The translations under genes were made by a program, and so were the position numbers. The notes below the pieces were generated by a model, which saw only the letters and a list, made by a program, of their open reading frames with translations, was not told the DNA's origin and ran no database searches. A stretch of 54,489 bases of DNA from a virus. Its lineage: Duplodnaviria; Caudoviricetes. Every line of letters starts with the position of its first letter. Position 1 is the first letter of the stretch. The DNA lies in IMG/VR virus record IMGVR_UViG_3300012952_000028, positions 1 through 54,489 of that record; one strand, given 5' to 3'. Positions 921-36,700 of this stretch are shown piece after piece.

Positions 921-1171
921 AATTCCGCTTCATTCCCCTGTTAGTGTTAATGATGTCACCCTATTGGCTGGGCGCAGCTACAGCCGATGATGATGCATAT
1001 GAGTCCGAGTTAGATACGCTCCAACAACGGATTGAGGCGGCCAAGCAGGGGGAACAGTCCCTAAGTGCCAGGGAACGGGAATTAGAGGCGCAGCTGGCCG
1101 CGATGCAGAAGAGAGCCGAGGAAGCTGAGGGTAAGCTGGCAACTTGTCAAGCCCGTTTGAAGTCCCCTTAA
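917..1171 (+). CDS. secreted coiled-coil protein
   Basis: ATG 917 overlaps the upstream TGA. Signal-peptide-like MKFRFIPLLVLMMSPYWLGA, then a coiled coil. Confidence 0.7.
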   Translation: MKFRFIPLLVLMMSPYWLGAATADDDAYESELDTLQQRIEAAKQGEQSLSARERELEAQLAAMQKRAEEAEGKLATCQARLKSP

Positions 1172-6232: not shown

Positions 6233-6631
6233 ATGGCCCACCCTATTGAAGCTCTTTTAGATACGGTCATCGACCAGGCGGGTGATAGGAGTAAGGATCT
6301 CTTAGAAGAGGCACAAGAAGCCCTGCAAGATTTGGCGCTGGACTCCGATGACCCTACTGGCAAGGTAGTCCTTTCCCTCCTTTCAGACGCTGTAGCCCAA
6401 TATGGGCCTATGGGTATTGAGATGGGACAAGATGCAGTGCGCCAGTTGTTGGCTGGGAAGTCCCCTGATATTGACTGGGCTAACCCCCGCACCGCATCGG
6501 ATGCCGTAGCCCTTCTCCAGAACGCGGAGCGCCATCAACGTAAGAGGGCGCGAGAGGCTTCTCGAAAGGCTGGCATTATCCTTCAAACCCTGGGATCCCT
6601 TCTCCTCCAAGCAGCGTTGAAAAGCCTTTGA
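6233..6631 (+). CDS. hypothetical helical protein
   Basis: 132-aa ORF in a tight + strand operon. Confidence 0.7.
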   Translation: MAHPIEALLDTVIDQAGDRSKDLLEEAQEALQDLALDSDDPTGKVVLSLLSDAVAQYGPMGIEMGQDAVRQLLAGKSPDIDWANPRTASDAVALLQNAERHQRKRAREASRKAGIILQTLGSLLLQAALKSL

Positions 6632-7203
6632 GACAAGTCCTTTGCCAATGCGGAACCGTCGTTGAGGTGTTCGAGGGAACTACGCGCCAATGTCGCATTT
6701 GCGGCACCACTCATGGCTCGGTTCCAGAACGCCCTCCCCGACCCCTGCCTCACTTAGTAGAGACATGGTCGCCTTGCGTGACTTTGAGGCGAGATGGCCG
6801 CTCTTTAGTAGTGGTGGCTACCCAAGATATTCCTAAAGGCCAAATCTTTGAGAAGTCTCCCACTATGTGGTTTGACCGCCCTTCCGAAGTAGCCAAGATG
6901 GTCCAATTGAACATTACTATCGGAGGGCCGAATCCTAAGGGCGTGTATTTGGCTCCCGCTGTCTATCAATGCAAAATGGTAGACGGGACTTATGAGCCCA
7001 ACGCACTCTCTCAAACGTGGGAGGGGGCTGTTATACCCTTAGGGTACGGTGCTCTATATGAAACCGGGGTAGGAAGCACCGTTAATGCTAATGGGCGACT
7101 CCTCTTTGAACGTCACCATTTGTTTGTCGAGTGGTACGCCACTAAAGACATAAAAGCTGGGCATCAGATTCGTCAAGGTATGGGAGCATACCCTCGTGAG
7201 TAA
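6628..7203 (+). CDS. SET-domain protein (degenerate) with N-terminal Cys/zinc-ribbon motif
   Basis: VVATQDIPKGQIFE, LGYGALY and YATKDIKAGHQI match the bacterial SET pattern. The canonical NHS is replaced by ETG and the EELTxxY Tyr is not evident. CQC...CRIC at the N-terminus. Confidence 0.7.
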   Translation: MRQVLCQCGTVVEVFEGTTRQCRICGTTHGSVPERPPRPLPHLVETWSPCVTLRRDGRSLVVVATQDIPKGQIFEKSPTMWFDRPSEVAKMVQLNITIGGPNPKGVYLAPAVYQCKMVDGTYEPNALSQTWEGAVIPLGYGALYETGVGSTVNANGRLLFERHHLFVEWYATKDIKAGHQIRQGMGAYPRE

Positions 7204-7408: not shown

Positions 7409-7638
7409 AGCCGCCATCAAAATGGGACAAGGATCAACTGGTTCGAGTTCGCGTTAATCTTCCGCGCCGCGAGTACGAGGAGTTGGAGCATATGGCAAAA
7501 CGAGAGGGCATCTCGGTGACTGACGCTATTCGACGCGCTATCACCTCGGAGATGTACTTCAAGCGCAAGGCTGATGAGGGTTGTAAGCTCCTCTATGAAG
7601 ATCCCCGAGGGCAACTCTTTCAAGTGAAGATTCGGTAG
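7405..7638 (+). CDS. ribbon-helix-helix (CopG-like) DNA-binding protein
   Basis: VRVRVNLP strand, then EYEELEHMAKREGISVTDAIRRAI helix-turn-helix typical of RHH proteins. Confidence 0.75.
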   Translation: MKPPSKWDKDQLVRVRVNLPRREYEELEHMAKREGISVTDAIRRAITSEMYFKRKADEGCKLLYEDPRGQLFQVKIR

Positions 7639-7639
7639 C

Positions 7640-7972
7640 GTGTCGGATGGGATTACCGAGAGTCGTCGCACCGTAAGAGAGCCTCAAGAGGAGCCTTACG
7701 TTGTTGACTTGAGCACGGAAACTCCTGCTGAGGTTTGGGTTCCCTCGGCAAATACCTATGATCCCAACCCGAAGCGAGAACAAGTAAGAGGAACCATCGC
7801 CTGGTTCCTCTTAGGGATCTTGTTGCTAACCATTGTCTTTGCCTTTACCGCTCTCGCCCGCACTTGGACCGAATACGATAACATCAAGGACATGTTAGGC
7901 ATTCTCCTACCCCCTATTACAGGGTTGGTAGGATCAGCCATTGGTTTCTATTTCGGAAGGGGCACCGACTAA
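7640..7972 (+). CDS. two-TM membrane protein
   Basis: IAWFLLGILLLTIVFAFTAL and MLGILLPPITGLVGSAIGFYFG hydrophobic segments. Confidence 0.7.
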   Translation: MSDGITESRRTVREPQEEPYVVDLSTETPAEVWVPSANTYDPNPKREQVRGTIAWFLLGILLLTIVFAFTALARTWTEYDNIKDMLGILLPPITGLVGSAIGFYFGRGTD

Positions 7973-9045
7973 GCGGTGGCCTGCGCTCCGTTTTCTGACA
8001 CGGGGATGTAAGTGCAATCATCCTTCTTGGCGTGTACTGCTGTCTCCAACATCTCAAACGCTACGGCATAGGGGCATGCATTAGCGTTAGGACGGCGATC
8101 CTCTAAGTAGCCGTACCCATCCTTAGCCGTACCCAGCGGGATGCGGATAGAGGCGGTACGGTCGCTCACGCCATACTTGAAGTCCTGGTAGGAGCAAGTC
8201 TCGTGTTTTCCGGTGAGGCGCATCTCGATCCCGTCCCCATACACGGCCAAGTGGGCCTGAATACGCTCTACGTCTGCGGCAGCTTCACACCATGAGGTGA
8301 TCTCTTTCATGCCACCCTCTTCCCGCATAGCTTTGGTCGAGAAATTGGTGTGCATGCCGCTTCCGTTCCAATCTCCGGGAACAGGCTTGGGGTCGAGAGT
8401 AGCGTTGATGCCGTAGTTCTCCCCGATGCGGTAGAGAAGCCAGCGAGCCATCCAAAGATGATCCCCTACCTCAAGGGCCGTGCAGGGTCCGATCTGGAAT
8501 TCCCACTGACCGGGCATCACCTCTGCGTTTACACCACTGATCTTGATTCCTGCGTCATAACAAGCCTGAAGATGCTTCTCTACCAACTCACGTCCGTAGA
8601 CCTGATCCGCACCCGCACCGCAGTAGTAAGGGCCTTGGGCCGGGGGGTAGCGACGATCATCGCCAAACCCCAGGGGTCGGGAGCCATCAAACAAAACGTA
8701 CTCTTGCTCCATGCCGAACCAAGCATCCTCGTACCCTTGTCGAGCCGTGAGAAACTCACGCACCTTGGCGCGATTATTGGTAGGGTGCGGGATTCCGTCA
8801 GCCGTGAATACTTCACACATGGCCAAGTAGTGGCCCTCCCCCCGTACCGGGTCGGGAATCACGCAAACCGGCTTCAGTAAACAATCCGAAGAGTCCCCAT
8901 CTGCTTGCTCGGTTGAACTTCCATCAAAGCTCCATTCAGGAAGATTCAACTCCTCCCCTTCCTTAAGGTCGGGCAAAACCTTGGTCTTCGACCGAATAGC
9001 GTGGGTTGGGGTGGCTCCATCAATCCAAAGATACTCTACAAACAT
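7969..9045 (-). CDS. glnII: glutamine synthetase type II
   Basis: EYLWIDG, WSFDGSST, WFGMEQEY, QGPYYCG, NAEVMPGQWEFQIGP, PKPVPGDWNGSGMHTNFST, RLTGKHET, DRTASIRIP and GYLEDRRP all intact. ATG 9045 follows SD GGGAGG. Confidence 0.95.
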   Translation of the reverse strand: MFVEYLWIDGATPTHAIRSKTKVLPDLKEGEELNLPEWSFDGSSTEQADGDSSDCLLKPVCVIPDPVRGEGHYLAMCEVFTADGIPHPTNNRAKVREFLTARQGYEDAWFGMEQEYVLFDGSRPLGFGDDRRYPPAQGPYYCGAGADQVYGRELVEKHLQACYDAGIKISGVNAEVMPGQWEFQIGPCTALEVGDHLWMARWLLYRIGENYGINATLDPKPVPGDWNGSGMHTNFSTKAMREEGGMKEITSWCEAAADVERIQAHLAVYGDGIEMRLTGKHETCSYQDFKYGVSDRTASIRIPLGTAKDGYGYLEDRRPNANACPYAVAFEMLETAVHAKKDDCTYIPVSENGAQATA

Positions 9046-13520: not shown

Positions 13521-14603
13521 CTATTCCGCTTTGAACATGTCTAAGACAGGGGTGGATTCCCCTCGTTGCCGTACCTTTCTACTTTGAGAGATACCCTCCA
13601 AGCGGCTCTTAGCTTCGGGCAAAGAAGCAATATTCACATCTATTCCGATGTAATTTCTCCCGTGGTCCAAAGCTGCACTTCCCGTGGTAGCGGTTCCTGA
13701 AAAGGGATCGAGAACCGTGGCGGGCCGAAACCCGTCATTATGCCCGCAGCTGAGAATCCAACACCCATTCTCAACACGGGGAGGCGTGCCGCAAGTGGCA
13801 CAAACCCCCTTTTCAGGCGTTGAGGCTAAGATCATCGGCTCTACTAAGTCATAGGGCCACGGGGATACTGACTTACCCAAGTAGGAGCCCAAATTGACTT
13901 TCCAAACTGTTCCCTTGTTCTTCCCCTTAGGGTGCCATGCCTTTTCTAAGTCAGGGCGTTTAGCCCACCCTCCAGCCATAATTGTCCCTTTGTTGTAGCC
14001 CTTTACGTGCTTCTCATCTTGAGACTTATGAGCCTCCCTCAAAGGATCGGCGTTGTAGAAGTATTGACCCCCGCTCTCCGGGTGTGCCAATAAGAAGAGG
14101 GTTCCGTGGGATTGGGATAATCTATCGGTATGAGCGCCAAACCCTGTCGGGTTGTCGGGAGCCCAGATAATGTCATTACGAACAACCCACCCATCTGCCT
14201 GAAGAGCTAAGGCTACGCGGGTGGGGATGAGGCCGAGTTGCTTGTTGTCAAGGTAACGGTCCCTCACGTAAATCCACGCCGTCCCGTCCTTTCTCAAGAA
14301 TGTCTGCACTTTTCGCATAGCCAGGACGCAGTGGCCGATAAACTCTTCCACTGTGGCTTCCATCCCCAGCACGCTTTCTTGAGCGGCTACTTTGATAGGC
14401 CTGGAATCGACAAAGGGGGTGTATGAAAATCGGGGCCATTGGACCGCCTCTCCATCCGATTGTCCAGGGACGGGAAACTCCGCGCAAACCACATGAACGC
14501 TATGGTCGGGCAAGCGAGCGTCCAGTACAGATGACCCATAAATAAGGGTAGCTGTAGGGGACTTATCGCCTAATTTCGGCTTCAAGTAGATGGGTTCAAC
14601 CAT
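13521..14603 (-). CDS. beta-class N4/N6 DNA methyltransferase homolog with degenerate catalytic motif
   Basis: Collinear with phage beta-MTases (LPDHSVH, LGMEATVEEFIGH, LRKDGTAW, IPTRVALALQADGWVVRNDIIW, VLDPFSGTATTG, YIGIDVN), but TSPPY is replaced by AEFPV. Confidence 0.85.
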   Translation of the reverse strand: MVEPIYLKPKLGDKSPTATLIYGSSVLDARLPDHSVHVVCAEFPVPGQSDGEAVQWPRFSYTPFVDSRPIKVAAQESVLGMEATVEEFIGHCVLAMRKVQTFLRKDGTAWIYVRDRYLDNKQLGLIPTRVALALQADGWVVRNDIIWAPDNPTGFGAHTDRLSQSHGTLFLLAHPESGGQYFYNADPLREAHKSQDEKHVKGYNKGTIMAGGWAKRPDLEKAWHPKGKNKGTVWKVNLGSYLGKSVSPWPYDLVEPMILASTPEKGVCATCGTPPRVENGCWILSCGHNDGFRPATVLDPFSGTATTGSAALDHGRNYIGIDVNIASLPEAKSRLEGISQSRKVRQRGESTPVLDMFKAE

Positions 14604-14621: not shown

Positions 14622-14792
14622 TTAGGGTTTAGGGGTGTCGGACAACCCCCCAACAAAGACTATTCTCATGGTGTTCCGCTTCCCGTTCCGTCGAATACGA
14701 ACTGCGGACTTTTCAGGTACTTGCACCCCTCGCGCTTCCAGGGCTTCCTTGAGGAGTTGGACTATCTCGGGTTGTTCCAAGACGATTTCCAT
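14622..14792 (-). CDS. small hypothetical protein
   Basis: MEIVLEQPEIVQLLKEAL...; ATG 14792 overlaps the dioxygenase TGA. Confidence 0.6.
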   Translation of the reverse strand: MEIVLEQPEIVQLLKEALEARGVQVPEKSAVRIRRNGKRNTMRIVFVGGLSDTPKP

Positions 14793-15946
14793 CACTCTTC
14801 CCCAAACAATTCTTGTAAGTAGGCCACCTCTTCCTCCATCTTTTGAAGAGTCTCTTGATGCCTCTCCCGGTTCAAGGCAGCCTTTTGCTTGGAGGTGAGG
14901 AAAGTGGACTTCCACTTCGCATATTTAGCGGCCTCCTCTTCTTGGGAAGCGCAATGTTTCATCCTTACTCGGGCATAACACACCACGCTTATGCGCTCAT
15001 AATCATCCCCTACAGGTACCATGGGGGTGTTGCAATGCCACTGATGAACGTCCATCGCAAGGAAGTCTCCCGTCCTGACATCTACAGCCACCCGAAACTT
15101 GGGAAAGCCTGTGTAGCCCCCTTTGTAGGGGTCTCCCTCAATAACGGTGAGGTTCCCAAACCCTTGGGGGAAGTCTCCCGCGTCTTTGTGGGCGGCGGTT
15201 CTCCAGTTACGGTTCACAGTAATGGTGGTGAAGACAGTATCCCCTAAGGTCCAGCCGTTAGGGGAGATACCCGTATCCTCCACGAATTGCTTTTGGGCCA
15301 GCCATCGTTGGGGAGCTTGGTTACGAAAGCACTGGCTCACCGCTTCCAAGTATGGCACTGCTGCTTCAGTGCGGCCAGGGTTGGCTTTGGTGTAGCCAGT
15401 CTGACGACAGAACGGGTGCCTCTCTTCGGCGTTGTAGTATCCGGCAACCCCACTGTTAGAGAGGTTAGCAATATCTACTTTAGACACGGTGCCGTCCTCA
15501 AGGACATATCGGGCGCGAGTGCCGCTGCCTCCCAGCATGACCAACTTCCCTTTGGCGGTAGCCCGAACTCGAGAGGGGTCAATCTTGCCGCTGGCCAACC
15601 CTCGGTTATCGGCTTTCTTGGCTGCTCCCCGAAGGTGCTCCGCAGCAGTGTCGCATAAGTCTTGGGGGATCACCCCTTTCCGAAAAGAGAGTAGGAGGCG
15701 ATCTTCCACGTCCTCTTCACTAAACATAGAGATGGCATCAGATGCCCCTGGCCGGTAGATGTCGCAATCGCGGTTTACGATGATAGCATAGTGATCCTCA
15801 TCAATAAACTCCCCGCCTAAGCGATCTACCTCATAATCGGGGAGGATGCCAGGACCGCTCAACTCTATCTTGAGGATGCCTTGCTCTTCCCACTCCCAAC
15901 CTTCCAGGTCCCCCCGTCTAAAGGGCGTGGCGTCAGATGGCCTCAT
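14792..15946 (-). CDS. TET/JBP-family 2OG-Fe(II) dioxygenase (5-methylpyrimidine oxygenase)
   Basis: TVFTTITVNRNWRTAAHKDAGD (HxD), GNLTV, GGYTGFPKFRVAVDVRTGDFLAMDVHQWHCNTP (distal H), ERISVVCY (2OG-binding R): the phage TET/JBP signature. Confidence 0.88.
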   Translation of the reverse strand: MRPSDATPFRRGDLEGWEWEEQGILKIELSGPGILPDYEVDRLGGEFIDEDHYAIIVNRDCDIYRPGASDAISMFSEEDVEDRLLLSFRKGVIPQDLCDTAAEHLRGAAKKADNRGLASGKIDPSRVRATAKGKLVMLGGSGTRARYVLEDGTVSKVDIANLSNSGVAGYYNAEERHPFCRQTGYTKANPGRTEAAVPYLEAVSQCFRNQAPQRWLAQKQFVEDTGISPNGWTLGDTVFTTITVNRNWRTAAHKDAGDFPQGFGNLTVIEGDPYKGGYTGFPKFRVAVDVRTGDFLAMDVHQWHCNTPMVPVGDDYERISVVCYARVRMKHCASQEEEAAKYAKWKSTFLTSKQKAALNRERHQETLQKMEEEVAYLQELFGEE

Positions 15947-17411: not shown

Positions 17412-18305
17412 GTGAAGATCCCCGACTTATGGAATAACTGTTACGATGGCGAACATCGTAAAGCGATGTCTCCGGAAGAGTTCAAAAAGACCTTCTGCGA
17501 TGTGTGCATGAACTCAGGCTGCACTAACTCTAAAGGTGCGGGTACTCAGTGGATGAAGAGGATGATGACCCAAGAGGATCGTCTCCTAAACAATCCTAAT
17601 TTCGCCAACACAAGTGATCCCCGCTTCTCTGGCTTCGCCGAGATGGACTTCAAGAACATGATGCAACAAGCGTTGGCCATTGAGATTGCTGACCGCAAAG
17701 GGGATTGGGAAATTCCCACCCAAGAGGAGATCGGCCAAGCAGCAGCCGAGATGCTGGGGATGATCCCTCCACCTGCCTTCCAACCAGAACCTGAACCTGA
17801 ACCAGAACCTGAACCCGAACCAGAACCTGAGCCAGAACCGGAGGCACCCCCTCAGCGTCTGGTAGATGAGGTGGGGCAGACTGACATCGAAGGGAAACGG
17901 GTCCAACCTGAGCGTGAGTCTGAACCTGAAGAGGATGAGGTAAAGGGACGCTGGAACGTCAAAGGGGACAGCGGCAACCTTTACACCGTAACTCAACACG
18001 AAGACGGCTCATGGGACTGTACTTGTCCGGCGCGGAAAGAGTGTAAGCATATTCGGGGCCTGCAGACTAAGTTGTCGAGAATTGCCCCCGAGCCAGTCAC
18101 CGAAAATCCAACACGTCCTCCTCCTGGAGCTTTCACCCGAACCCCTCAGGCTATGAACACCGCGCAACCTTCGGGCGGCGTGCTGTTAGGAGGACCACCG
18201 CCTCCCCCCACCCCCGAAGTGGATCCTTGGGCTGCTCCCCCCACCAAACCTAAAGAGCGAGTCATTGAGGTTGGGGGAAAGGTGACGTTTGGAAAGAAGA
18301 GTTAG
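17412..18305 (+). CDS. SWIM zinc-finger protein with (PE)n linker
   Basis: VKGDSGNLYTV...WDCTCPARKECKHI (CxC-xn-CxH SWIM); N-terminal Cys cluster; SD GGGAGG before GTG. Confidence 0.8.
   Translation: MKIPDLWNNCYDGEHRKAMSPEEFKKTFCDVCMNSGCTNSKGAGTQWMKRMMTQEDRLLNNPNFANTSDPRFSGFAEMDFKNMMQQALAIEIADRKGDWEIPTQEEIGQAAAEMLGMIPPPAFQPEPEPEPEPEPEPEPEPEPEAPPQRLVDEVGQTDIEGKRVQPERESEPEEDEVKGRWNVKGDSGNLYTVTQHEDGSWDCTCPARKECKHIRGLQTKLSRIAPEPVTENPTRPPPGAFTRTPQAMNTAQPSGGVLLGGPPPPPTPEVDPWAAPPTKPKERVIEVGGKVTFGKKS
17784..17843 (+). repeat. (Pro-Glu)10 coding repeat
   Basis: ccNgaR hexamer tandem array in frame. Confidence 0.85.
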
Positions 18306-18775
18306 CTCAAGCTGAACTGATCTCCTACCACTACTAAAGTATGGCGATCCTCTTTCCATGCTTGAGCTACAGTGCGGAAGAGAGCGAGAGTTGTTTCGCT
18401 TCCTCCTAATATAGGAGGGTCATAACATGCTGGTGGTCCCGGTTGCTTACGGGTTCCACCGGGTCGGCAGACACCCTCATTCCAATCAATACAGTTACCG
18501 GCCATAGCGCACTCTCCCTCGGCCTTTAGGACGCGCCGTGCCGAGTCTTGGGGGCTACGCCCTAAGACTTCTAAGAGGGGCTGCATAAAGCCGTGTAGGG
18601 CGTGAGAGAGGACTTCCCCCGGTATTACCCCAACCCCCTCGGCCCAGCTGGTCCCTCTTAAGGGTTCCAACTCCCCCCAATCCTCATCGCTTCCATTAGT
18701 GATGAGAAGGAGGACCTTCTCCGAATGGGCGCGACCATCCCCCATAGGGTCATCGGTGAGGTCAATCTCCCTCAT
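18302..18775 (-). CDS. hypothetical Cys-containing protein
   Basis: 157 aa, four Cys; overlaps the upstream MTase fragment gene. Confidence 0.65.
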   Translation of the reverse strand: MREIDLTDDPMGDGRAHSEKVLLLITNGSDEDWGELEPLRGTSWAEGVGVIPGEVLSHALHGFMQPLLEVLGRSPQDSARRVLKAEGECAMAGNCIDWNEGVCRPGGTRKQPGPPACYDPPILGGSETTLALFRTVAQAWKEDRHTLVVVGDQFSLS

Positions 18776-19169
18776 CAGCTTTTACCTGTTTGAAGAAGCG
18801 GGATGCCCCGCCCGTATCTGAAATCGAGGAGGTAGGAGCCGACCTTCCAGACCCCCAAATACTACTTACGCCATTTGCCTTAGACTCTCGGTGGTTGTCG
18901 CCCAACTCTCCTGTTTGCTCATCTAAGGCTTTTACGGGGCATCCCTCTACGCAGATCCAGTTGGTCCCTGTGACCTTCTTGACCCCCTCGCACCTACAAC
19001 CATCGAGATGCTGGAGGATCAGGTTGGCGGGCCATCTTCCCCCCACTGGCCTTTCCCCTGTTCCGATGCGGGAAGCGTCAATATTCAAAGCCCCGGTGCC
19101 GTGCTTCAGCACGTTCTGGGCTACGGACCCTTCAGACTTAGGTTTACGGAGTACGTGGATCACTTTCAT
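18762..19169 (-). CDS. split DNA methyltransferase, middle (TRD/insert) subunit
   Basis: MKVIHVLRKP..GSVAQNVLKHGTGALNIDASRI...GRWPANLIL...GGASRFF is the central segment of phage beta-class MTases. ATG 19169 in ATGA overlap. Confidence 0.8.
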   Translation of the reverse strand: MKVIHVLRKPKSEGSVAQNVLKHGTGALNIDASRIGTGERPVGGRWPANLILQHLDGCRCEGVKKVTGTNWICVEGCPVKALDEQTGELGDNHRESKANGVSSIWGSGRSAPTSSISDTGGASRFFKQVKADEGD

Positions 19170-19759
19170 AGCTTGTAGCCGATCACTACGGGTTCCCAAG
19201 CAGGCTTCAAAGCGGTGCCCCAGCCTTCCCACTTTTGGCCTTCTTTAGTCGCAGCGGTTGTTACCCGCATGGGGGCTAAGGGCTTATCCTCTCGCAATCC
19301 GTGCGCCACCAAATCTCCATCGAAGCCTCTACTGCCATGACGGTGGGCGGGTCGATGGTTAGGGTTTGGCCCCACCGCGATAGATTGCACTCCTAATGAT
19401 TTGTCGATAGCCTTCCCAATATTCAAAGACTTGGGGAAGCCGGAGCCATAGGCCCAGGCTTCGAGAGATATGTTCTGAAATCCCACGTCCTCCATAGCAG
19501 CTGCTAAGTGATGTAAGGTACGGGTTCCACCGAAGGCTTTGATAATCCCTCCGGGCTTCAAAACCCTGTAGGCTTGTTCCAGCCAATCCTTATGCCATAA
19601 CCGTTGGGCTTCTCCCTCCCCTAAGTCGTCAAACTCTTTCCCCATAAACTTCAACCCGTAGGGAGGGTCACACACAAAAGCCTCTACGGAGCCTTCCGAA
19701 AGCTCTTTCATCACGTCAACGCAGTCACCGTGCCTCAAATCAATCGTCTGTAAAGCCAA
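19166..19759 (-). CDS. split DNA methyltransferase, catalytic (DPPY) subunit
   Basis: HGDCVDVMK, VCDPPYGLKFMGK, RVLKPGG, FGGTRTLHHL, WAYGSGFPKS, WEGWGTALKPAWEP; no FxGxG motif. Confidence 0.88.
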   Translation of the reverse strand: MALQTIDLRHGDCVDVMKELSEGSVEAFVCDPPYGLKFMGKEFDDLGEGEAQRLWHKDWLEQAYRVLKPGGIIKAFGGTRTLHHLAAAMEDVGFQNISLEAWAYGSGFPKSLNIGKAIDKSLGVQSIAVGPNPNHRPAHRHGSRGFDGDLVAHGLREDKPLAPMRVTTAATKEGQKWEGWGTALKPAWEPVVIGYKL

Positions 19760-20510
19760 AGAACTCCCCCATTGACATTTCAGGTGCCTCTTCCATTACC
19801 ACTTCCCGGTCGGATTTTATTACAGCATTATCCCAAGCCATCGCTCTTTCGTTCCAATGGCGAACACGGGAGTCTGCTATGGCGTGGTACTCCTCGCTCT
19901 TTTCGATCCCGATCCCGTCATGGCCGGTGGCTAAGCAAGCGATCATCGTAGTACCGGAACCCATGAAAGGATCTAATACCACGCCCTCCACGCCGTCTAA
20001 GACCTTCTCCATGACCTCTACGGGCTTTACCGTAGGATGGATGTTGCGACGTTGCTGAACGCGATTCATACCCACTGTTCCCGGCTTGTCAAACTCGTAG
20101 TCTTCGCCGTCTTCAATGGCTTGGCGTGCCCCCCGAGACATTCCAAATGTCTGAACCGGAAGGTGGGTGAGGCCCTCTTCCCTCTCAGAGCGCGATGCTT
20201 TGGGCGTATAGTGAATGGTGCTCCCCTCCTGAGCCAAAAAGATCGCATCCCTCACCTCAAACCCCAAGGATTCCGCTTCCGATGCCCCCGTATGTCCCGT
20301 GGGCTCATCGTCTGGGGCTATTAAGAATAGGTGCCCGCCCGGTTTTAAGACACGGTACGCCTCATCTACGGCTGACGCATCCTCTAAAACGATAGCGTGT
20401 ATAGAGGCATCGTCATGCTGACCCCACCCGTACCCTTCCGAAGCATGGATACAAATGCCATCTTCAGGGGTCGCTAAACCTTCCAGATAATTACCAATTG
20501 ATTGGGTCAT
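19740..20510 (-). CDS. split DNA methyltransferase, SAM-binding subunit with degenerate catalytic half
   Basis: YTPKASRSEREEG, NIHPTVKP, VLDPFMGSGTT, GIGIEKSEEY. The N-terminal half keeps RVLKPGGH and GFEVRD but has no DPPY. Confidence 0.85.
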   Translation of the reverse strand: MTQSIGNYLEGLATPEDGICIHASEGYGWGQHDDASIHAIVLEDASAVDEAYRVLKPGGHLFLIAPDDEPTGHTGASEAESLGFEVRDAIFLAQEGSTIHYTPKASRSEREEGLTHLPVQTFGMSRGARQAIEDGEDYEFDKPGTVGMNRVQQRRNIHPTVKPVEVMEKVLDGVEGVVLDPFMGSGTTMIACLATGHDGIGIEKSEEYHAIADSRVRHWNERAMAWDNAVIKSDREVVMEEAPEMSMGEFFGFTDD

Positions 20511-20679
20511 TAGCTGGTGGCGTGGGCCGTTCCTTATCTTGACGCGATTGGAGCGCCGAGCGGATGGCCTTTAGAGGGGCATTGGGAAACTGAGCTTTGG
20601 TCTGTTTTCGGGTAGGGCATACCTTTTGTGCATTCACCCACTCTTCGACCTCATTTCTCATGTCACGGCTTTCAAACAA
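20491..20679 (-). CDS. small basic hypothetical protein
   Basis: TTG start 7 nt after SD AAGGAGG; first gene of the MTase operon. Confidence 0.6.
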   Translation of the reverse strand: MFESRDMRNEVEEWVNAQKVCPTRKQTKAQFPNAPLKAIRSALQSRQDKERPTPPANDPINW

Positions 20680-20731
20680 GGGTTGTCCTCCTTCATTAGA
20701 CAGTCTACATTACCCTCGACGCTACCTCTCA

Positions 20732-27709: not shown

Positions 27710-30700
27710 TCAGGACTTGTTCAAGGCTTCTTGCTGCAAGAGTAAGCGCCTTTGTTTCCGGAGTTTCCGAGGCAGTTTGCTTTCAGCTCTCTTGGCAGCT
27801 TGAATTGAGCCGTCAGTGCGATCTGCTCGGAAAGCGATCCATGAGAAGCGTTGTTCACGGAACTTGTCTTGAAGGTCCAAAACCTCATCAATCAAGTCCG
27901 GTAGGACAGGGCGCTGGTTATCAGTATTCTCTGCAAATGTGGCATAGGGGGTGGCACTTGTCGATGGGGTTTGGCTGTCCAGGTTGAAGTCCAAAATCCA
28001 GAACCGACGATCCAACACGGAAACGCAGTCATTTACGTTGGCGAAGGGGGCGAGAGTGGTAATCCCACGAATACTCTCTACCATCGCATTGGTCCAAATT
28101 CCCACCCCTGTCGTGATACTGTTGGGGAATCCGATGTCGTCAATCTGATCCTTCTCTTGGAAGATGAAGTAAGAGCCAGTGGTGTCCGTGTATACGAACT
28201 CCACCTCTTCCATCCATGAGAGCATACGCTCTCTCATGAACAACACCAGCTCTAAGGCATCTGTAGAGAAAACGGTGTTGGGGCGAATAACGCGGAACCC
28301 GAATGGCTCAATACTCTTGAACATATTTTCAGGGGTGCGGTCCAAGTAGAGATTGCCCACGGGAAGGGCCGTAGGGCGCAGGGCTTGTTGGCCTTCTGGA
28401 TCTGGCCCAGTACCGCTCCCATCAATCTGAGAATCATGAACAGTGGGGAGAACCGCGTACTCCGCTCCAGGCCCACCAAAGGTAACAGGGGAGGCCCCAT
28501 CTTCAGTTCCATCGGTGAAGCGTGAGGTCCCATCTACCGTGAGGGTGTTTGTATCAATGGCTGTAACTTTGTAGAACCCTCTATTATCATCTAAAGGTTC
28601 GGGGCCACCTTCGCGGTACACATCCGTACCATCTGGAAGCACGTCAGTCCGTGCCTCTACCGAGCGGTCTCCCGTGGGACGCGAACCTTGCTCTTCCACA
28701 TCGTATAGGACGCCAGCGGGATCGATAACTACATAGTCCCCCTCTAACACCTGCGAACCGTTCGGAAGAACACTCCAGCTTGTGACATCAGGATCTTGAA
28801 TAGTGTTGTAGGCGGGTACGGTGCCCCCTGGGTCCGTGGGAGATCCGGTGTAGTCTACCGTGCGACGGTATAATGTCTTATCGGTGACCAGATCTAAGAG
28901 TTGCTCGCACGATTGCTCGTGGGGAACCATCGCCTGGTTGAGCCACACCTCAAACTTAAGACCTGCCAGGGAGGTGGTCGTTGTCAAACCGGGCCTACTA
29001 AGAATAAGAGTGGAGGCTCCAGAAACTTGTTGGATCTCGGCCGAGTCTAATAAGCTCCCGTCTGCAGCGTACACCCTGAGCGTGTCGCCGGGATTGATGT
29101 TCACAGACGCATCATTAAATGGTCCTACGGTCGTGCCCAGGACGGCGCTGGTGAAGGTACGGGAGGCTGAGGCGTAAGAGCCTACCGTCCCTGTTCGCAT
29201 AGAGTAGACATACTTCAAAGGCTTCATTAAAGCGGCGATGTCCATTTGAACAGGTTGGAACCTTCTCATTCGTCGGACGAAGAATGACACGGTCTCCATG
29301 AATACTGTTCCTGCCGTTGCGGGATCCTCGTCCCAGTCAATCACTTGACGCATCCCCACTTGCGCTCCGGAGTGGCTTGCTGATACCACTTGGGGGATGA
29401 GCCGGTTCAAATCGGCTGTGGGTAGCGGGAACGATGGCTCCAGGAAGACGCCTGATAAGGCATGAAAGCCAGGTATCGTGGGTTCTGTAGGGTGGCCCGG
29501 TGTCGTCACGCGGTTTCCAAAGGTCCACACATCTCCAGGCAAGACACACATCAGAGCGGAATTTGGGGTGGTGACGCTCGCAGGTGGCCCATTGCCCCAA
29601 CGCAGCCTCTCCCACTTAACTTCGCCAACCCCGGCCATGGATACCCATAAGTCCAGAGATTGGGCCACTCCTTGAACGCGCCCATATTCCGTATTGGCAC
29701 CATCCAATCCTAAATCATACCACTTAGCGTACACGGGACGGCGAACGTCATCTTGGAAAAGCCAGGGGTTGGGAACCGTGTAGTCCATGTCAACAACTAA
29801 ATCCCCGCCATTGGCACCGGCTCCAGTGTCGATTTCTTGGGCGAGCACCCCAACTGTGTTCGGGGGAGTAGAGGGTCCGATGTTCAACCACTGAGCTCCC
29901 CAGGTAACAGTGTTGTCAGAGTAGCCTGGTGCGCCGGAGTGGATGGCGGGATTCACATTTCCACATGCAACGGCAGCGAACCCGCCGTAGAGGGGATCAC
30001 CCACTGAGGTGCTGATCGCACCAACGCAGTTATTATCAGGAAGGGAGTCTCCCGACGCAGTTGCGCTTCCCAAGTTGTGGATTGGCAGGTACCTCATCCC
30101 TGATACCTTCACCCCTACCTGAGCGGCAGCCCACCATGCGTCGGTGGAGAAGGCGTCCCCATTGGCGTCATAGGCGTCAGTCCCGCCTGGGGTTCCCGCC
30201 ATGGTAAAGGTGAGTTGCCCATCCCCATCATAGACAAGACTTGTTATGTCCAACTTTACGACACTTACAGGATTCACATCGTAATCGTTGGCGAGGGGGC
30301 CTGTCCAAGTGGCGTAGGTGGAATCCAAGATAAGGTGTACCGCCCTGTTACTCGCACTTAAATTCCAACCGTGCTCCCGATTAGGAACGTGAGGGGAGCC
30401 TTGGATAACTATGGTGTTAGTCGATTGATCGGCTGACAGGATGGTGGGGAAGGTAAGGTCCAAAGCCCCATCGTTACCGCCGATGGTAGATGCATTACTC
30501 CTCAACACGGGTTGGCCGTCTGCATCTGTGACTGCGCTGTTGGCCACGGAATGGCGTACTAAATAGGTGCCCGCTTTGATCCCCCCATCTGTGAAGGCGG
30601 CTCCCGCTCCTGCTGAGTTCGTTCCTTGAATTACCAAGGAATCTCCCGAAAGGATGGTTGCCGTGTCACCCTGCTCATTAGTTACATTCTGAATCCAGGT

Positions 30701-33700
30701 TCGGGGACCGGTGAGGGTTCCCGTAAGGGCCGCATCAAGTTGATTGTCATGGCAATCCCCACTTCCTTTGCTGATAATGTCAGTTTTGTTGAAGTGGGAA
30801 GAGGGAACTCCTGACAAAATGATGTTGGACGCCTCAACGGTTAACGGTGCGTTGGCCCCACCTTCCCAAGCCATAGCTCGGAAATAGGCCACATTATCCG
30901 CCCCCGAAGGTACGTTGTACGACACGTACTCCACCCCTGGGCTCATGTTTCCAGTGGCCGTGGACCCTCCCAACCGAGTGAGGAAGGTGAAAGGTTCAGC
31001 CCCGTCCGGGTAGGGTTGTGTGGCATCTCGATTCACGGACTTCGGGGAGTTCACCCCTGAGAAGGGACTTCCTGAAGTTTTAGTGAGATGGACCGAGAGT
31101 TGAGCTTCCATCGATCCTGGCGCAAAGAAGGCACTCACGACGCCGTTGGCGGGCTGAGCACCTCGCGGTAGAGAATACGACACATCCGTTCGAGACACCG
31201 TGAGATGCTCGCAAAAAGTGAGGCGGTCATCTCTGATGAATGCGGTTTCGGAACCTGTCCCCGCCCCAAGGGAGATGGCGGGGAGGGCGCTTCCTGACGC
31301 GGCAAAGGTGTCGTCGTCTATGTATGTGTCTAAATCTAAGGTGAAGTCATAGCGTTGGCCATTCACTAAGCCCAGAATAGAGCAAATGTCTTGGCCAGGG
31401 TAAAGGGCAGAGAAATTAAGGTCCATTTGCAATAGGCCAGGGGCGGGTGCAACCCCACCGCCGGTGGCCGAAATGTTCAAGGCCGCCACCGCTCCCACGA
31501 CTGGCTTCACATACACGGTGGAAGCTAACCCAAGGGAGGCAGGAGTTCCCGTACTGGCGTCATTGATCTGAGGAATGAGAATGGAACCTTTGTAAGGGTC
31601 TCCTACAGCAGCGGGATCCGGGTCAAAGATATTCACTTGTAGGGCAGCAATTTTGTCTTGGGGAGTGATTCCCCACACTCGTACCAACTGGGCTACTTCA
31701 TTGAAGGAAAGACCGGGAAAGTCACTCACATTAATGACGGATTGGAAATCAACGCCAGGGATTCCGCTGGCTACGTCTGTAATGATGATCCCGGTTCCGT
31801 CAGCATCCCCCGTGTTACACCCGGCGTAGCCTCGAAGAGTATATGCGAGATTTCCGTGTTCCGCTGAGGTGGTGGCCGGCATTGTTCCGGCTATACCGGG
31901 GGCCGATTGGGAAGCGAAGCGGGGAGGCTCTAAGGAAGACCAGTTAAAGTCCCCAAACGTGTCGGCATACACATCCCCTACAGAGAGAATTCCCTTCATC
32001 CCCATAAACAGATCGGTATTAGAGGCGGGGTCAGCCTCTACTAAAACGAGGTCATAGGGGCGAAGAGACCCCACCCCGCTATCCGTCCCATAAAGCCAGG
32101 GAGCTACTCCCTTAACGGGTTGCAAGTTAGAGGATTTGGTGTAGAGAGTAGCAGGGTTTCTCCAGGGGGAGGTGCCCGGATCCACTTGATTGGTAAGGTA
32201 AATCTCTCCATCCGAAACTCGAATCTCATTCGGGTAGATGGAGTCCCACATTTGCTTTAAACCGGTGGGGGCACCAGTGGGATACCCTGTCGTAGAGGGG
32301 AGGGGGGAATAGGAAGTGTCTCCCAAAAGGGTACGGAAATAAGGCTCGATGGCTCCCAAGATGGAAAGCTCGCACTCCGAACTGGCTAAGTAGGGGATGG
32401 AGTAGTCACCTGAATCGTTTTTGTCCTGGCCCAGCAAGCAAGGAAGTTGTACAGGTTCTTGGTCTGTATTGACAAACCCCACCGGCCCTTCGATGCAGGA
32501 TAGGGGTGTTGGGGGATTTTGTCCGAAAAGCTCTTTCAATGGGAAGGAGTCGTCTGCAGCCGAGGGGAGGGAGTTGTCCGTAAAGACGCCCTTTCTCTTC
32601 TTGGCACGCAAATCGAACTGCATGTTGTAGTCGGGAAGTCCTAACCCTCCCGCCGCAATCTCTTCTAAGGTGGGGGACTCGCTATCGGAAAGGTTCTCTA
32701 ACACCTCGTTGAGAGGCGCTACGCTATAGATGGTGTCCCCATAGCCGGTCTCGTTGCTTACAATGCTTTCAAGGGGCACTGTGCCGTTTACGAGGACGTT
32801 GAGGCCCGACACGTCCCCGTCGTAGTTAGCCAACGTGATGACGCAAGCAGCAGGCATATCCCCTACTAAGATGGGACCGCCAGAAATATCTTGAAGAATG
32901 TAGTTACTTCCCAACACCCCTGGTGGCTTTCCAAAAGCTAACCGTTGCCCCACCTTAAATCCAGGGGTGGAGAGGTTGAAGTCTCCCGACACCAGATCAG
33001 CCTGCTCACCACCTCCGCTTACTAATTTAGAAAGATCAGGGAAGCCGTCATCCCCTAAGTAGAACTCCGAAAAGGCGACAGGGGTAGCGACAATGGTGGC
33101 TTTCCCCACGGTAGAGATAGAAAGAGCGTCATCTAAGTCGGCTGACCCTTGAGGATAGTATGCCCAAATTCGTGCTCTTGCGCGACGGTCTGAAGCCTCC
33201 ACGCTCACCACGCCTGTGATCTCTCCCAGAGCGGGATTAGCAACGACCCCGATTTCAGACCCCCTGGTCTTGATGACCTTTTCTTGGGTCTCACCGGGAT
33301 TGGGACCAGGAACGGTTTGTAAGCGCCCAGCACTGTAGTAGCCCCCGGAAGTTACGGCCCCATCACTATTGTAAGAGGCCTCCAATCCAGGGTACAACTG
33401 AGAAAAGTGAGTTGTGGCTTCGGGGAATAGCCGCGAATAGGAGTGGTCCTGCCACATATCCTTGAACCGCCCCCTTGAGGTAAAGAGGGGGAAGATAGAG
33501 GGCCAGCCCTTGGGACGGCGAAGTCCAATGAGAACGCGGTCATCCATATCATTACGGACTCGGTACCGTTGCCGGGCCAAGAAGAAAGAGAGGAGATCCG
33601 GGTCCATAGGTTCGCCGCTGGGATCACCCGGCTTATCAGTGGGGTCGGGAACTGTGGCTGTGAGAGGGTTGAAAATAGAATCCCGTTCCGTGAGGTAGCC

Positions 33701-36700
33701 GTCTGCAGCCTCGAAGGAAGAGGGAGCCCAACTGTCTACAACCTCTCTCCAAATGAGTCTCTTGTTGAGATCTCCGGACACTGGGTCTTCATATCCCGGT
33801 GGGGGGTAGACCTTATCACGCCCGATGAAGAATTTGAACTTACCATCACGGTCCCCGATGATCCTTCCGTCAATGGTTTCAAGAACTTGCTCGAAGGCGA
33901 GGACTATCTCATTGAAATACTGAATGTATGCCCTGGCCGCCCGATCCTGATCTCTTAGGTTTTGGACTTCGGAGCGCAATCCAAAGTTTCCTTGTTTAGC
34001 TATGTCAGTCTCTCCGGGGGAGGTGACAGGGGGTCCTGATCCCGGAGTAGTTACTTGACCCTTGGTCGCTTCTGAAACCTGGGGCAAATAGTCCTTGAGG
34101 GTCAGAGTCTCATAGAAGTAGCTATCAGGATTCCTAAAGGTGTATTGGGCTTTGAGGAAGGACCCCAGAATCCGGTTTTCCACCGTAGGGAACGTCATAG
34201 AAAGATTCTTGGCCAGGAACACAGGCGCAATCACCGCACCCTCTACCAACGCCGGAGATATTGTTCGCAAAGAGGTGTACCTCAACCACAAAGTCTCATG
34301 GGGAGCAAGACCCCCCTGGTTGGGGTACTTGAAGAGAACGGCCCCGGAAGTGGGATTGATCTCGTACTCAATTCCTTCCTTAAGGACTCTCCCTGGCAGC
34401 TCTCCCGTGCCGTCCCTCTCCCCGGTCAGAAAGAGAGCATACTCTTCCGTCCCCTCTAAGGGGAGGATTCCCGTGAACTCTACGGGATCAGGCTTATATA
34501 CCGCTCGTGCAGAAAACTTAGTGACATCAGTCCCGTAAGTGTGTTTCGTGTACAGCGGATTGGCCAGATTGACTATCGTGTATCGACCATCAGTAGTGAG
34601 GTTGGAATTGGCTACTAAATAGGGGTAGCCTCCAATCTCCAAAATGTGGTTGGGTCGAGTGAATTGGGTGGCATCCCCTTGGAAGATGATCTTGAGCTGG
34701 CCCTTGTCAGCAACCTCATACGGGATGTCCACTTCCATCAAGAAGCCGAAGCTCCCTCGGTCTGCTGCTGAGGGGTCAGGCCACGCTACAGGAAGATCGG
34801 AGATAAGAAGGGGGACATCGTTTCCAGGAGACCGTGAGCCAGCCTCCCTTTGGGTAGGCGGGAAAAAGTTGACCGTGGTTCCCGTAGCACTATCATAGGA
34901 GGTAGAGGTGATGTAGAAAGGGGTTGGCCCTATCAACATTAGGGAGTTGGCGGGAAAGTCGCTTTGTCGGTCCCCCTCTAACACAAAAGAGCTTTTCTCC
35001 TCATTGATAAAGAAGGGCTTACGGTAGACGGGCAAGGTGCTCACCGAGTAGGCATGCTCCCCTCCAAATGCCTCGTACACTCCGTAGGTGATTTTTACTG
35101 GCTCATGTCGCCAAGGATCGTAAGGATCCACCGGGGGCGCACCTTCCGCCACCACATCCGTGTTGAAAGTAAGGGTACTTGCGGCGGGGTCAAAAGCGCA
35201 GTTTTCTTCACCGGCGTAATTCTGAAGGTCGGAACCGGCCCAAATCAAAGGTTCAAACTTATCTGTGGTAGCGACAGTCTTCCCATCAGGGTTGAAGGCG
35301 AACACCTTAGCATTGTCAGGGTCCACCCGCGTAGCCACTTCCAATCGAACCGGGAGGGTCAGGAACTCCACGATCTCGGTGGTGTTCCCTTCCTCATCTA
35401 CCTTCTTGTCGCCATAGCCGTCAGCTTGGTAATAGGCCGCCTCTACAACTTGCCCTTCCCGGAGCGGTTTCATGAAGAACATGGATCCGGCCATGGGGGA
35501 TATTTGTACATCCTTGGAGGACCCGGCCACCATCCTCTCCATAAAGTAGGCATCCGCGCTCGGGAATGCGACTATCACGCTTTGGGCTACCGCTAACTCT
35601 CCGGTGGTGGGGTTACACCCCACGTAGGAAGCCGGTTGAACCGTGGGAGGGAAGAGGGTTTGGTCGAAGTAGACAGAAGAGCCGCCTAAGTCCGTCACCA
35701 CATCTTCAGCTACCGTTATAGCGCCCGACGTAGTGTTCACATCTACAAATCCCGCAGCGACCGATGCAGCGTTGAGAGAAAGGTTCCCCTCAGCAGTGCT
35801 GTACGCATCAGCCCCAATACGAATTTGAAAGTAGGACGAAGCTGACCCGGACGCACTCACGTGAGGGTCGGAAGGGTCTACAAAGAGTCCCGTGGGGCTG
35901 AGAGACCCTAAGGCCGAGCCAGTAGTGAGGTATTGAACGGGAATTTGGTTAGTTCCTGTCTCATTGAGGCTCATCCCCAAACGCAAGAACGTGGCCCGGT
36001 CGGACTCTAAAGCATCAGCCACGTCGGCAATGAGGGTGTCAGTCCCTAACACTCCCAACTTACTCAGGACTCGAATCTTGAACGGCTCTTCGGGGAGGTG
36101 GTTAGTCTCCACCATTAAGACATCAGCGACAATAGAAGGGTCGTAGGCATCTTTGCTGATGCCATCGTACACAGCCCACGTACACCCTCCAGACACCGTA
36201 TTGCGGAAAGCGGGGGCCACCGTCAAGCTCACGGCACTCCCGGAGCTATCTACATCTGTAATGGTGTAGAGTCCTTCGTTATCCCCGGACTTAACATGGA
36301 GCTTATCGTCTGCCGCCACGGAATTGGCGAAAGTGGTTTGGTTTACATTAGCATCCGTGAAGGTCGTGCCTGTTTGAGACCCATCGCCGCCTTCAAATAT
36401 CACTCCCCCGTAAACATTAATGAGAGAGGCTTGGCCCGGTGCACCGCCTGCGGCCATGAGAAAGTCGGTACCTTCCGTTAGCTGCGTAGCCATAGGGACG
36501 GGATTAGAGCGGCTGGGAGCCTCTTTGAGGTACAATCCGTACCCAGTCCCCGTAGGTTCCATCGCTGCCGAAGAGAGGGTCTCCACTAAGACGGATTGGT
36601 GGTCTAATTGAAGGATGTTAGCCGGAGTGAGCACCTGAGTTGGGGAAGTCTTCGCCTCCTTTGTCCACATAAACTGGTTATTTTCCCACACGTACTTGAT

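Follow-up and report, generated by a model that had tools for sequence, protein, structure and literature searches.

Probable modular beta-class DNA methyltransferase encoded by separate genes of a huge marine phage

The 54,489-bp IMG/VR virus record IMGVR_UViG_3300012952_000028 (Duplodnaviria; Caudoviricetes), the whole of which is referred to here as the window, contains four overlapping open reading frames (ORFs) on the minus strand, named A, B, C, and D, which together span positions 20510 to 18302 (Table 1). The first three carry between them the parts of a beta-class DNA methyltransferase (MTase) that in other phages is the product of one gene, and they are the subject of this work. The record is judged to be about 10% complete, so it covers only a small part of what must be a very large phage genome; contigs related to it are 150–436 kb long. 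Sequences near-identical or related to the 18300–20700 region were found in marine- or seawater-labelled metagenome runs of 17 studies.

In addition to the overlaps listed in Table 1, the end of C and the start of D share 14 nt. A 4-nt overlap like that of the window recurs at B/C and C/B junctions of two related loci (L003 and L092; loci fetched from IMG/VR are numbered with the prefix L), and the first 16 residues of B, common to its close relatives P0195 and P0196, support the upstream TTG start of this gene.

Table 1. Genes, modules, motifs, and junctions of the split methyltransferase locus in the window
Feature	Position	Strand	Remarks
Gene A	19740..20510	-	256 aa; proposed hub subunit: non-catalytic pseudo-N half and SAM-binding C-half
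Gene B	19166..19759	-	197 aa, TTG start; catalytic half with DPPY, no SAM motif I
Gene C	18762..19169	-	135 aa counted from ATG; middle module
Gene D	18302..18775	-	157 aa; possible fourth component, no family assigned
A pseudo-N half	20175..20510	-	residues 1-112; HAIVLEDA (20399..20376) at the motif IV site
A SAM-binding half	19743..20063	-	residues 150-256; motifs X and I, GIGIE strand
Motif X HPTVKP in A	20039..20022	-	read from sequence
Motif I DPFMGSGTT in A	19973..19947	-	read from sequence
Motif IV DPPY in B	19669..19658	-	residues 31-34
B variable cassette	19244..19411	-	residues 117-172
C variable segment 1	19041..19076	-	residues 32-43
C variable segment 2	18816..18890	-	residues 94-118
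ATGA, overlap of B stop and C start	19166..19169	-	putative translational coupling
Overlap of A end and B TTG start	19740..19759	-	20 nt; G-rich Shine-Dalgarno-like run just upstream

According to a sequence-only reading of the window, A, B, and C rebuild one beta-class MTase, with DPPY and no S-adenosylmethionine (SAM) motif in B, only the middle segment in C, and HPTVKP together with DPFMGSGTT in A, and this distribution was confirmed. The motifs read from the sequence place DPPY in B, which is devoid of FxGxG, and the NVLKHGTG, GRWPANL, and ASRFF segments, with nothing else, in C, while the N-terminal stretch of A aligns to the core of B with LED in place of DPPY. The family matches lie well outside the range of chance. 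The Pfam family PF01555 is matched by B over its N-terminal part only (profile positions 2–89, 4.5e-10) and by A, through residues 152–212, over its C-terminal part (profile positions 156–219 of 221, 1.7e-19). Likewise, B matched the N-terminal part and A the C-terminal part of the NCBIfam and PADLOC MTase models; no family was found for C in Pfam, NCBIfam, or PADLOC. Among the PHROG families, B matches positions 10–190 of the 192 of phrog_6025 (6e-27), and phrog_3008 is matched by C at positions 2–31 and by A at positions 141–215.

The alignment to the one-gene enzymes Clown gp11 (of a Gordonia phage) and Thresher gp101 (of a Mycobacterium phage) arranged these parts in the polypeptide order B, C, and the tail of A (approximately its last 100 residues), which is the beta-class motif order IV..VIII – target-recognition domain (TRD) – X – I, and made C the counterpart of the stretch between motifs VIII and X. 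In beta-class MTases, this stretch is the site of the TRD. The gene order A-B-C of the window is permuted with respect to the one-gene polypeptide. The EPVV..K strand at the end of B appears again at the start of C (..VLRKP), i.e., on both sides of the ATGA break, as had been noticed previously, and the doubling is kept in relatives, since at all split loci B ends with an EP....K strand and C starts with M....LRKP. The halves that beta-class enzymes combine on one polypeptide lie here on separate genes, and A on its own does not unite motif IV and motif I, as HAIVLEDA occupies its motif IV site. The proposal that the three genes rebuild one MTase is therefore upheld by the family matches and the alignment, with the amendment that A brings an additional half-domain.

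The motifs are conserved in the parts to which they were assigned, and selection acts on these parts. DPPY was invariant in 48 of 48 B sequences, none of which has a SAM motif. HPTVKP, F.GSGT, and GIE are conserved in the alignments of A; in the one comprising 45 sequences, 31 columns are invariant, among them H158, P159, T160, K162, F182, G184, S185, G186, T188, G201, and E203 of the SAM-binding half, and some of the others lie in the pseudo-N half. In C, 13 columns are invariant (R8, K9, P10, N19, G26, N29, I30, R34, R45, W46, P47, N49, and R124).

The N-terminal half of A, termed here the pseudo-N half, had been taken for a decayed copy of the catalytic half, a view that the alignments do not bear out. 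A query with residues 1–150 of A retrieved 73 protein clusters of 140–448 aa, and in alignments of 26 and 45 members this half appeared as a conserved variant module, with H60, K56 and G58 (LKPGGH), G72, and V86-R87-D88 (GFEVRD) invariant, H38 and E85 nearly so, and the KASRSERE strand conserved as well. DPPY was present at its motif IV site in none of the 26 aligned A sequences displayed. The pseudo-N half is homologous to residues 58–106 of B (profile–profile comparison with hhalign, probability 93%, E 2.8e-7), and its identity to relatives is 40–61%, compared with 43–54% for the C-terminal half of A. As conserved as the SAM-binding half and homologous to B, it is a copy of the catalytic half that has been maintained without being catalytic itself.

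To establish how widely this layout occurs, the halves of A as well as B, C, and D were mapped by tblastn on 161 fetched IMG/VR loci. Most of these loci hold the one-gene form, with 122 ORFs comprising all the parts in one frame (the pseudo-N label in these ORFs is a cross-match on the true N-terminal half). A stand-alone A or a fusion of C to A (C::A) was found at 12 of the 161 loci, situated on 11 contigs (L003/L009, L004, L005, L091–L096, L098, and L117), and at every one of the 12 there is also a separate B and a separate C, in one or more copies. As L003/L004/L009 and L094/L095 are near-duplicates, the set corresponds to approximately 10 distinct arrangements. The record to which locus L011 belongs adds an A-B pair at a distance of 3.6 kb from a cluster made up of three B genes, three C genes, and one D. 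One relative of A (P0001) is 94% identical at the protein level, and the relatives at 51–56% identity (L003/L004 and L005) carry the same split genes. The layout expected in relatives was thus recovered as far as the split is concerned, and the order of the genes turned out to vary.

The junctions were also inspected in contigs assembled from sequencing runs, of which X1–X4 were compared with the region. The contigs of X2 and X3, two other runs and studies, are about 5–8% divergent, while the sequence from X1 is identical to the window and maybe comes from its source sample, and so was not counted as independent; in X2–X4, parts of the region were without coverage. The contigs of X2 and X3 bridge both the B|C and the A|B junctions and contain no frame-changing indel; B|C is free of gaps, and the only gaps near A|B, all inside the tail of A, are either three deletions of 1 nt each (net in frame) or two gaps that compensate each other. 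An indel fusing 19759..18762, which the sequence-only reading had named as the finding that would overturn it, was looked for in these contigs and none was found, and its argument against a simple frameshift error is borne out by the intact junctions and by the persistence of the split at 40–60% identity. The split is a conserved design, and an assembly error is excluded.

Comparison of the related loci revealed that the parts behave as modules. The gene order is A-B-C-D in the window and in L003, C-B-A in L094, B-C-A in L096, C-B-C-A in L098, and C::A-B in L091. With so many orders among relatives, the permutation noted in the window, real in comparison with the one-gene enzymes, is incidental and is not a conserved trait. 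Copy numbers are asymmetric, i.e., there is one A per locus and up to four B or seven C: L092 reads C-B-C-B-B-C-B...A (4 B, 3 C, and 1 A), L117 has six tandem C genes followed by A, B, B, C, and D (7 C, 2 B, and 1 A), and L005 has four stand-alone C-like ORFs, one of them N-terminally short, besides a C::A fusion. Natural fusions with C at the N-terminus of A were identified in P0029, P0034, P0050, L005 (3191-4633), and an ORF of L091, which means that C and A are physically associated in some relatives. Both B and C are also abundant as stand-alone genes in metagenomes, with 1050 C-type clusters and at least 7933 B-type clusters (among 8000 candidates scored).

Among paralogues of the same locus, the scaffolds are near-identical and the differences lie in inner segments, of which B has one and C has two. 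In comparisons of B with three close relatives, scaffold residues 17–116 are identical at 96–99 of 100 positions, and the cassette of residues 117–172 at only 10/60, 13/119, and 14/64. The first 31 residues of C share 29/31 positions with P0075 and 30/31 with P0077; variable segment 1 shares 5/36 and 7/34, and variable segment 2 shares 25/25 and 7/28, respectively. The same mosaicism was observed at the nucleotide level in independent contigs, where 19231–19410 (B cassette) is swapped for 154 other letters, 18964–19077 (C segment 1) is swapped for 322 other letters, and 18806–18982 and 18813–18916 (C segment 2) are replaced; the replacements fall exactly on the variable segments and bring unrelated sequence of other lengths. 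A separately encoded, exchangeable specificity piece had been suggested, and the multiple copies and replaced inner segments of C agree with this; C is not the sole such piece, as B has a hypervariable cassette of its own and is also present in several copies.

Some of the relatives carry insertions within these genes. The A gene of L117 (4468-6303) is interrupted by an intein inside HP|TVKP, with a LAGLIDADG_3 match (1.4e-8) and a Hint_2 match below the cut-off (1.8e-5). In the B gene of L005 (6761-8614), YG|SGFPKS is interrupted by about 330 aa of intein-like sequence with Cys...Asn|Ser boundaries, which is not recognised by Pfam. Inteins usually sit in indispensable sites. A Cys-rich insertion follows FMGK in the B of L005 and in that of L169. 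In two distant relatives, L005 (6597-6790) and L091 (6624-6790), B is stopped by TAG or TAA right after DPPYG, and its continuation (..GLEFMGK..) is found in another frame a few bases past the stop; this break could represent recoding, by a bypass or a frameshift at the Gly codon ahead of the stop, or a further split that sets a DPPY peptide of about 40 aa apart from the remainder of B. In L114 and L119, which have no A-type gene, a 188-aa stand-alone B adjoins a complete one-gene MTase, so B-type halves may also pair with full-length enzymes. Finally, in L003, the closest large relative, the genes between and after the two C genes (6479-7114 and 7470-8087) are those of a SET-domain protein (PF00856, 5.1e-5) and of what is, by eye, presumably a thymidine kinase.

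The complex of A, B, and C with SAM was modelled with ESMFold2, using own alignments and B as the partner chain. The runs gave interaction scores (ipSAE) of 0.88, 0.89, and 0.90, compared with 0.00, 0.00, and 0.41 for the controls, the last of which had A replaced and B and C kept. The partner predicted local distance difference test (pLDDT) did not fall below 81, and agreement between the runs extended to 75% of contacts or more. Of 80 solved complexes, 58 attain the mark applied, as do 2 of 110 mismatched pairs; these counts are only roughly valid here. In the model, the Rossmann fold is shared across chains, with B28-29 (the strand before DPPY) lying on A178-180 (the strand before FxGxG) and B6-9, 13, and 16 on A199-202, both among the contacts of least error; residues 174–206 of A touch B. 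The pseudo-N half is predicted to contact B through A69-77 and 86-104, placed on helix 78-90 and strand 97-106 of B, with the least error for A73/76 with B83/86/87 and for A99-100 with B101-102. The N-terminal strand of C and its NID and RWPAN motifs are modelled on B177-192, the least-error contacts being C28/30/48/49 with B180-184.

Single-chain models were less informative. The AlphaFold2 (AF2) model of A alone had a pLDDT of 78 and a predicted template-modelling score (pTM) of 0.53, with residues 89–103 below 50 pLDDT, and a Foldseek search with it retrieved beta-class MTases at E of about 1e-5 and a template-modelling score (TM) of only about 0.23; with a model of moderate quality and such low TM, no reliable domain arrangement is obtained from A alone. 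For C alone, the pLDDT was 56. Judged from these models, neither A nor C looks autonomous. In profile searches against the PDB, B matched CcrM (3e-14) and RsrI, and C had no match to PDB sequences at E<=1.

Taking these data together, we consider it probable that the products of A, B, and C form a single DNA amino-MTase of the beta class, modular and hetero-oligomeric, in a huge marine phage. A hetero-oligomeric enzyme had already been suggested for this locus, and the conserved split, the fusions, the inserts in A of L117 and B of L005, the multiple C genes with their replaced inner segments, the unfused junctions of the independent contigs, and the complex model with its controls lend the suggestion support. 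In the proposed arrangement, B would supply the catalytic Rossmann half (motif IV, DPPY, with the strand that precedes it, and motifs V–VIII) and A the SAM-binding half (motifs X, I, and II), so that DPPY and SAM would come from different chains. The dead half of A would dock on the opposite edge of B and extend its sheet, and A would in this way clamp B and act as a hub. C would bind the conserved C-terminal W.GWGTALKP..EP element of B and, to judge from the fusions, A as well, and the variable cassettes, one of B and two of C, would contact DNA and set the target sequence. DPPY points to N6-adenine, which is the most likely target base if the motif is taken at face value. The enzyme would likely serve to protect phage DNA from host restriction.

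A further step would be that one A serves several B/C sets. The occurrence of one A with several B and C genes in relatives suggests that a phage can probably assemble several specificities on one hub and exchange them by recombination. A full combinatorial toolkit of huge marine phages, in which one hub clamps exchangeable partners through its dead half-domain and, with several B and C subunits and their hypervariable DNA-reading cassettes, provides many specificities from a few small genes, rapidly reshuffled by recombination, is a tentative proposal that we hold with clearly less confidence than the assignment of the subunits.

Several observations weigh against this interpretation. Two-gene splits without a pseudo-N half occur (L032, with B beside a C+A-tail gene), which means that this half is dispensable for a split as such and makes its role the weakest step of the argument. 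Since A holds both Rossmann halves, it could close on itself, leaving B without a SAM site. The window has one B and one C only, and combinatorial use is read from relatives. The output of the complex model consists of contact lists and leaves out the SAM-to-DPPY geometry and the C–A contacts; moreover, the modelled interface of B with the C-terminal half of A copies intrachain contacts of CcrM, RsrI, and M1.HpyAVI, so this part of the pass may be model memory. Finally, a related beta-class-like phage MTase with a separate subunit reportedly prefers 16S rRNA (PMC10810198), and a DNA substrate is for this reason not certain.

The first alternative worth weighing is that A is a self-contained SAM-dependent MTase with a non-DPPY active site, possibly acting on a substrate other than a DNA base, and that B and C are not its catalytic partners and serve as DNA-binding decoys, regulators, or partners of another enzyme, e.g., the PF01555 MTase encoded at 13521-14603. 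A indeed has both a motif IV–VIII-like half and a SAM half, each with invariant residues, and stand-alone B genes are found beside the complete one-gene MTases of L114 and L119. We nevertheless think this improbable, because B retains DPPY throughout its 48 sequences although it has no SAM motif, the AF2 model of A alone is not a compact MTase arrangement, the complex model sets the pre-DPPY strand of B beside the pre-FxGxG strand of A, and all 12 A-bearing loci have B and C.

Similarly unlikely is a genuine holoenzyme whose substrate is RNA (e.g., rRNA or tRNA) or which lacks sequence specificity; its cassettes would then have a role other than DNA reading, such as the evasion of host inhibitors or immunity. 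The precedent is the Stx-prophage MTase, which is reported to need a separate nucleic-acid-binding subunit and to favour 16S rRNA (PMC10810198, 10.1101/2023.09.20.558713); Stx-converting phages were among the tblastn matches, and that MTase matches the N-terminal half of the family. Moreover, some members of the beta class act on single-stranded DNA and RNA, and M.EcoGII is non-specific (PMC7544214). On the other side, the closest annotated relatives are 'DNA methylase' genes of actinophages, although by annotation alone, DNA modification is also the theme of the surrounding genes, among which are those of a Tet_JBP oxygenase and a further PF01555 MTase, and the numerous paralogues with cassette replacement are more like DNA-specificity systems than rRNA enzymes.

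That the three ORFs are remnants (through frameshift, assembly error, or decay), or are joined by recoding at the ATGA overlaps, is very improbable: although the parts are contiguous in one-gene relatives, B and C lie one frame apart with a 4-nt overlap, and the broken B of L005 and L091 indicates that some recoding or decay occurs in the family, the break point and the duplicated strand are kept at 40–60% identity in about 10 distinct arrangements, read-through cannot give the canonical polypeptide from orders with C before B or with A last, contigs of two other runs span both junctions with no indel that alters the frame, a slippery heptamer is absent at the overlap in the sequence as read, and the catalytic and SAM motifs are all invariant.

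The split MTase is not the only modification gene of the window. A complete 360-aa PF01555 MTase (1.4e-25) is encoded at 13521-14603 (minus strand) and adjoins the gene of a Tet_JBP 2-oxoglutarate–Fe dioxygenase (14792-15946, minus strand; PF12851, 2.5e-17; phrog_24024, 3.1e-74); together with the split MTase located 4 kb away, they look like a DNA-modification island. TET/JBP hydroxylases were stated, in a survey of jumbo phages, to be absent from those analysed there (PMC7824862).

Gene D, which contains several conserved cysteines, was found behind C in four separate contexts, namely the window, L003/L004, L117, and L011. No family was found for it in Pfam, PHROG, NCBIfam, or PADLOC, and its atlas matches, all below 0.9, are leads only; D may be a fourth component or a regulator. 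On the plus strand, 17412-18305 encodes a 297-aa protein without a Pfam match, in which a long (PE)n repeat is accompanied by proline-rich tracts and by a CxC...CxH motif that we take to resemble a SWIM-type zinc finger. The window also contains very large minus-strand ORFs at 27710-38854 (3714 aa), 41877-46784 (1635 aa), 1168-5067 (1299 aa), and 48929-52345 (1138 aa). The 1299-aa and 1138-aa ORFs, the two of the four that were scanned, gave no PHROG family, and neighbours of the very large ORFs have tape-measure-like matches, weak only.

If the proposed subunit composition is true, small exchangeable subunits that supply the missing part of the catalytic domain in trans could encode MTase specificity. 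Phage anti-restriction, and the epigenetic diversity of uncultured huge phages, would then have an architecture not known before. It would explain thousands of 'half methyltransferases' of about 190 aa and of unannotated 'hypothetical proteins' of about 135–230 aa in metagenomes, and would provide a rule for tying scattered genes to one enzyme in methylome annotation (REBASE-style motifs). It would also be a naturally evolved split MTase with a docking hub, of the kind that engineers have attempted to obtain from fragments of M.HhaI, M.SssI, and M.EcoHK31I. Should the more tentative combinatorial toolkit be real as well, it would parallel, among amino-MTases, the shuffling of Type I HsdS and could serve as a natural model for split methyltransferases that can be programmed.

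The nearest known enzymes are the one-gene actinophage MTases (Clown gp11 and Thresher gp101; PF01555, phrog_67), which have the same three blocks in one chain: their DPPY half is 45–50% identical to B, NVL.HGTG, GRWP.N, and GGASRF lie in the middle block, and HPTVKP and FxGSGTT in the tail. They differ in having a single EPVV..RKP strand and no pseudo-N half, whereas the window has three genes, the doubled strand, and the pseudo-N half. A DNA-level search of GenBank phages returned only patches of 52–66 nt, in actinophage methylase genes. No close A-type protein was found in isolated GenBank phages, where the best tblastn matches were ordinary small MTases 25–38% identical, and C occurs in isolated phages almost only within the one-gene actinophage methylases. 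The two-gene splits represented by PHROG families (phrog_6025 for the N-half and phrog_3008 for the middle and C-half) are matched by B, C, and A; they consist of two parts without a pseudo-N half, whereas in the window the middle is a gene of its own and the SAM half carries the pseudo-N half. The PHROG label for these halves is 'DNA methyltransferase' only, and the literature search yielded no paper on these families. Nor did it yield any account of a beta-class enzyme split in three, or of a hub accompanied by several half-MTase genes; the text of the jumbo-phage survey (PMC7824862), as far as it was available, describes methylase clades and no split form, and its supplementary tables could list such genes. 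The modular split of a beta-class DNA MTase is thus widespread and apparently undescribed.

Division of labour within beta-class dimers is known, as recognition and catalysis are shared between protomers in M.EcoP15I and CcrM, and in MettL3-MettL14 and MTA1-MTA9 one partner has an eroded motif IV, which in MettL14 reads EPPL (PMC7544214). The window resembles MettL3-MettL14 and MTA1-MTA9 in having a dead, motif-IV-eroded element beside an active one. In those pairs, the folds are complete, the eroded partner does not bind SAM, and the active protomer binds SAM itself (PMC7544214), whereas here the eroded part is a half-fold (A 1-112) situated on the sole SAM chain, and B is without motif I. 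For a separate subunit, the closest case is M.EcoPA8orf6770P, in which the co-purifying protein PNB-2 sets the substrate; that MTase is a complete enzyme and PNB-2 a winged-helix protein, unlike the A/B/C split (PMC10810198). This pair is a precedent for a separate specificity subunit and also a caution on the substrate.

M.AquI and M.EcoHK31I are natural C5-MTases, each composed of two separately encoded polypeptides. Here too the parts are separately encoded, by ORFs with their own starts that are kept across relatives, but M.AquI and M.EcoHK31I belong to the C5-cytosine class, different from the amino-MTases, and have two parts; to our knowledge, neither module multiplicity nor a pseudo-half has been reported for them. 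In Type I restriction-modification enzymes (HsdM2 HsdS) and in the multispecific C5-MTases of Bacillus phages, specificity is set by target-recognition modules that can be exchanged and in which a conserved frame holds variable inserts. C was considered as an HsdS and this was ruled out, as it has no Pfam, NCBIfam, PADLOC, or PDB-sequence match and corresponds by homology to the middle block of the one-gene enzymes of the PF01555 type. By analogy, the logic of the family described here may be similar, in that phages too stack several specificities; the multispecific MTases of Bacillus phages do so with TRDs carried in one polypeptide, whereas in the family of the window the Rossmann fold itself is split and B and C are the parts present in multiple copies.

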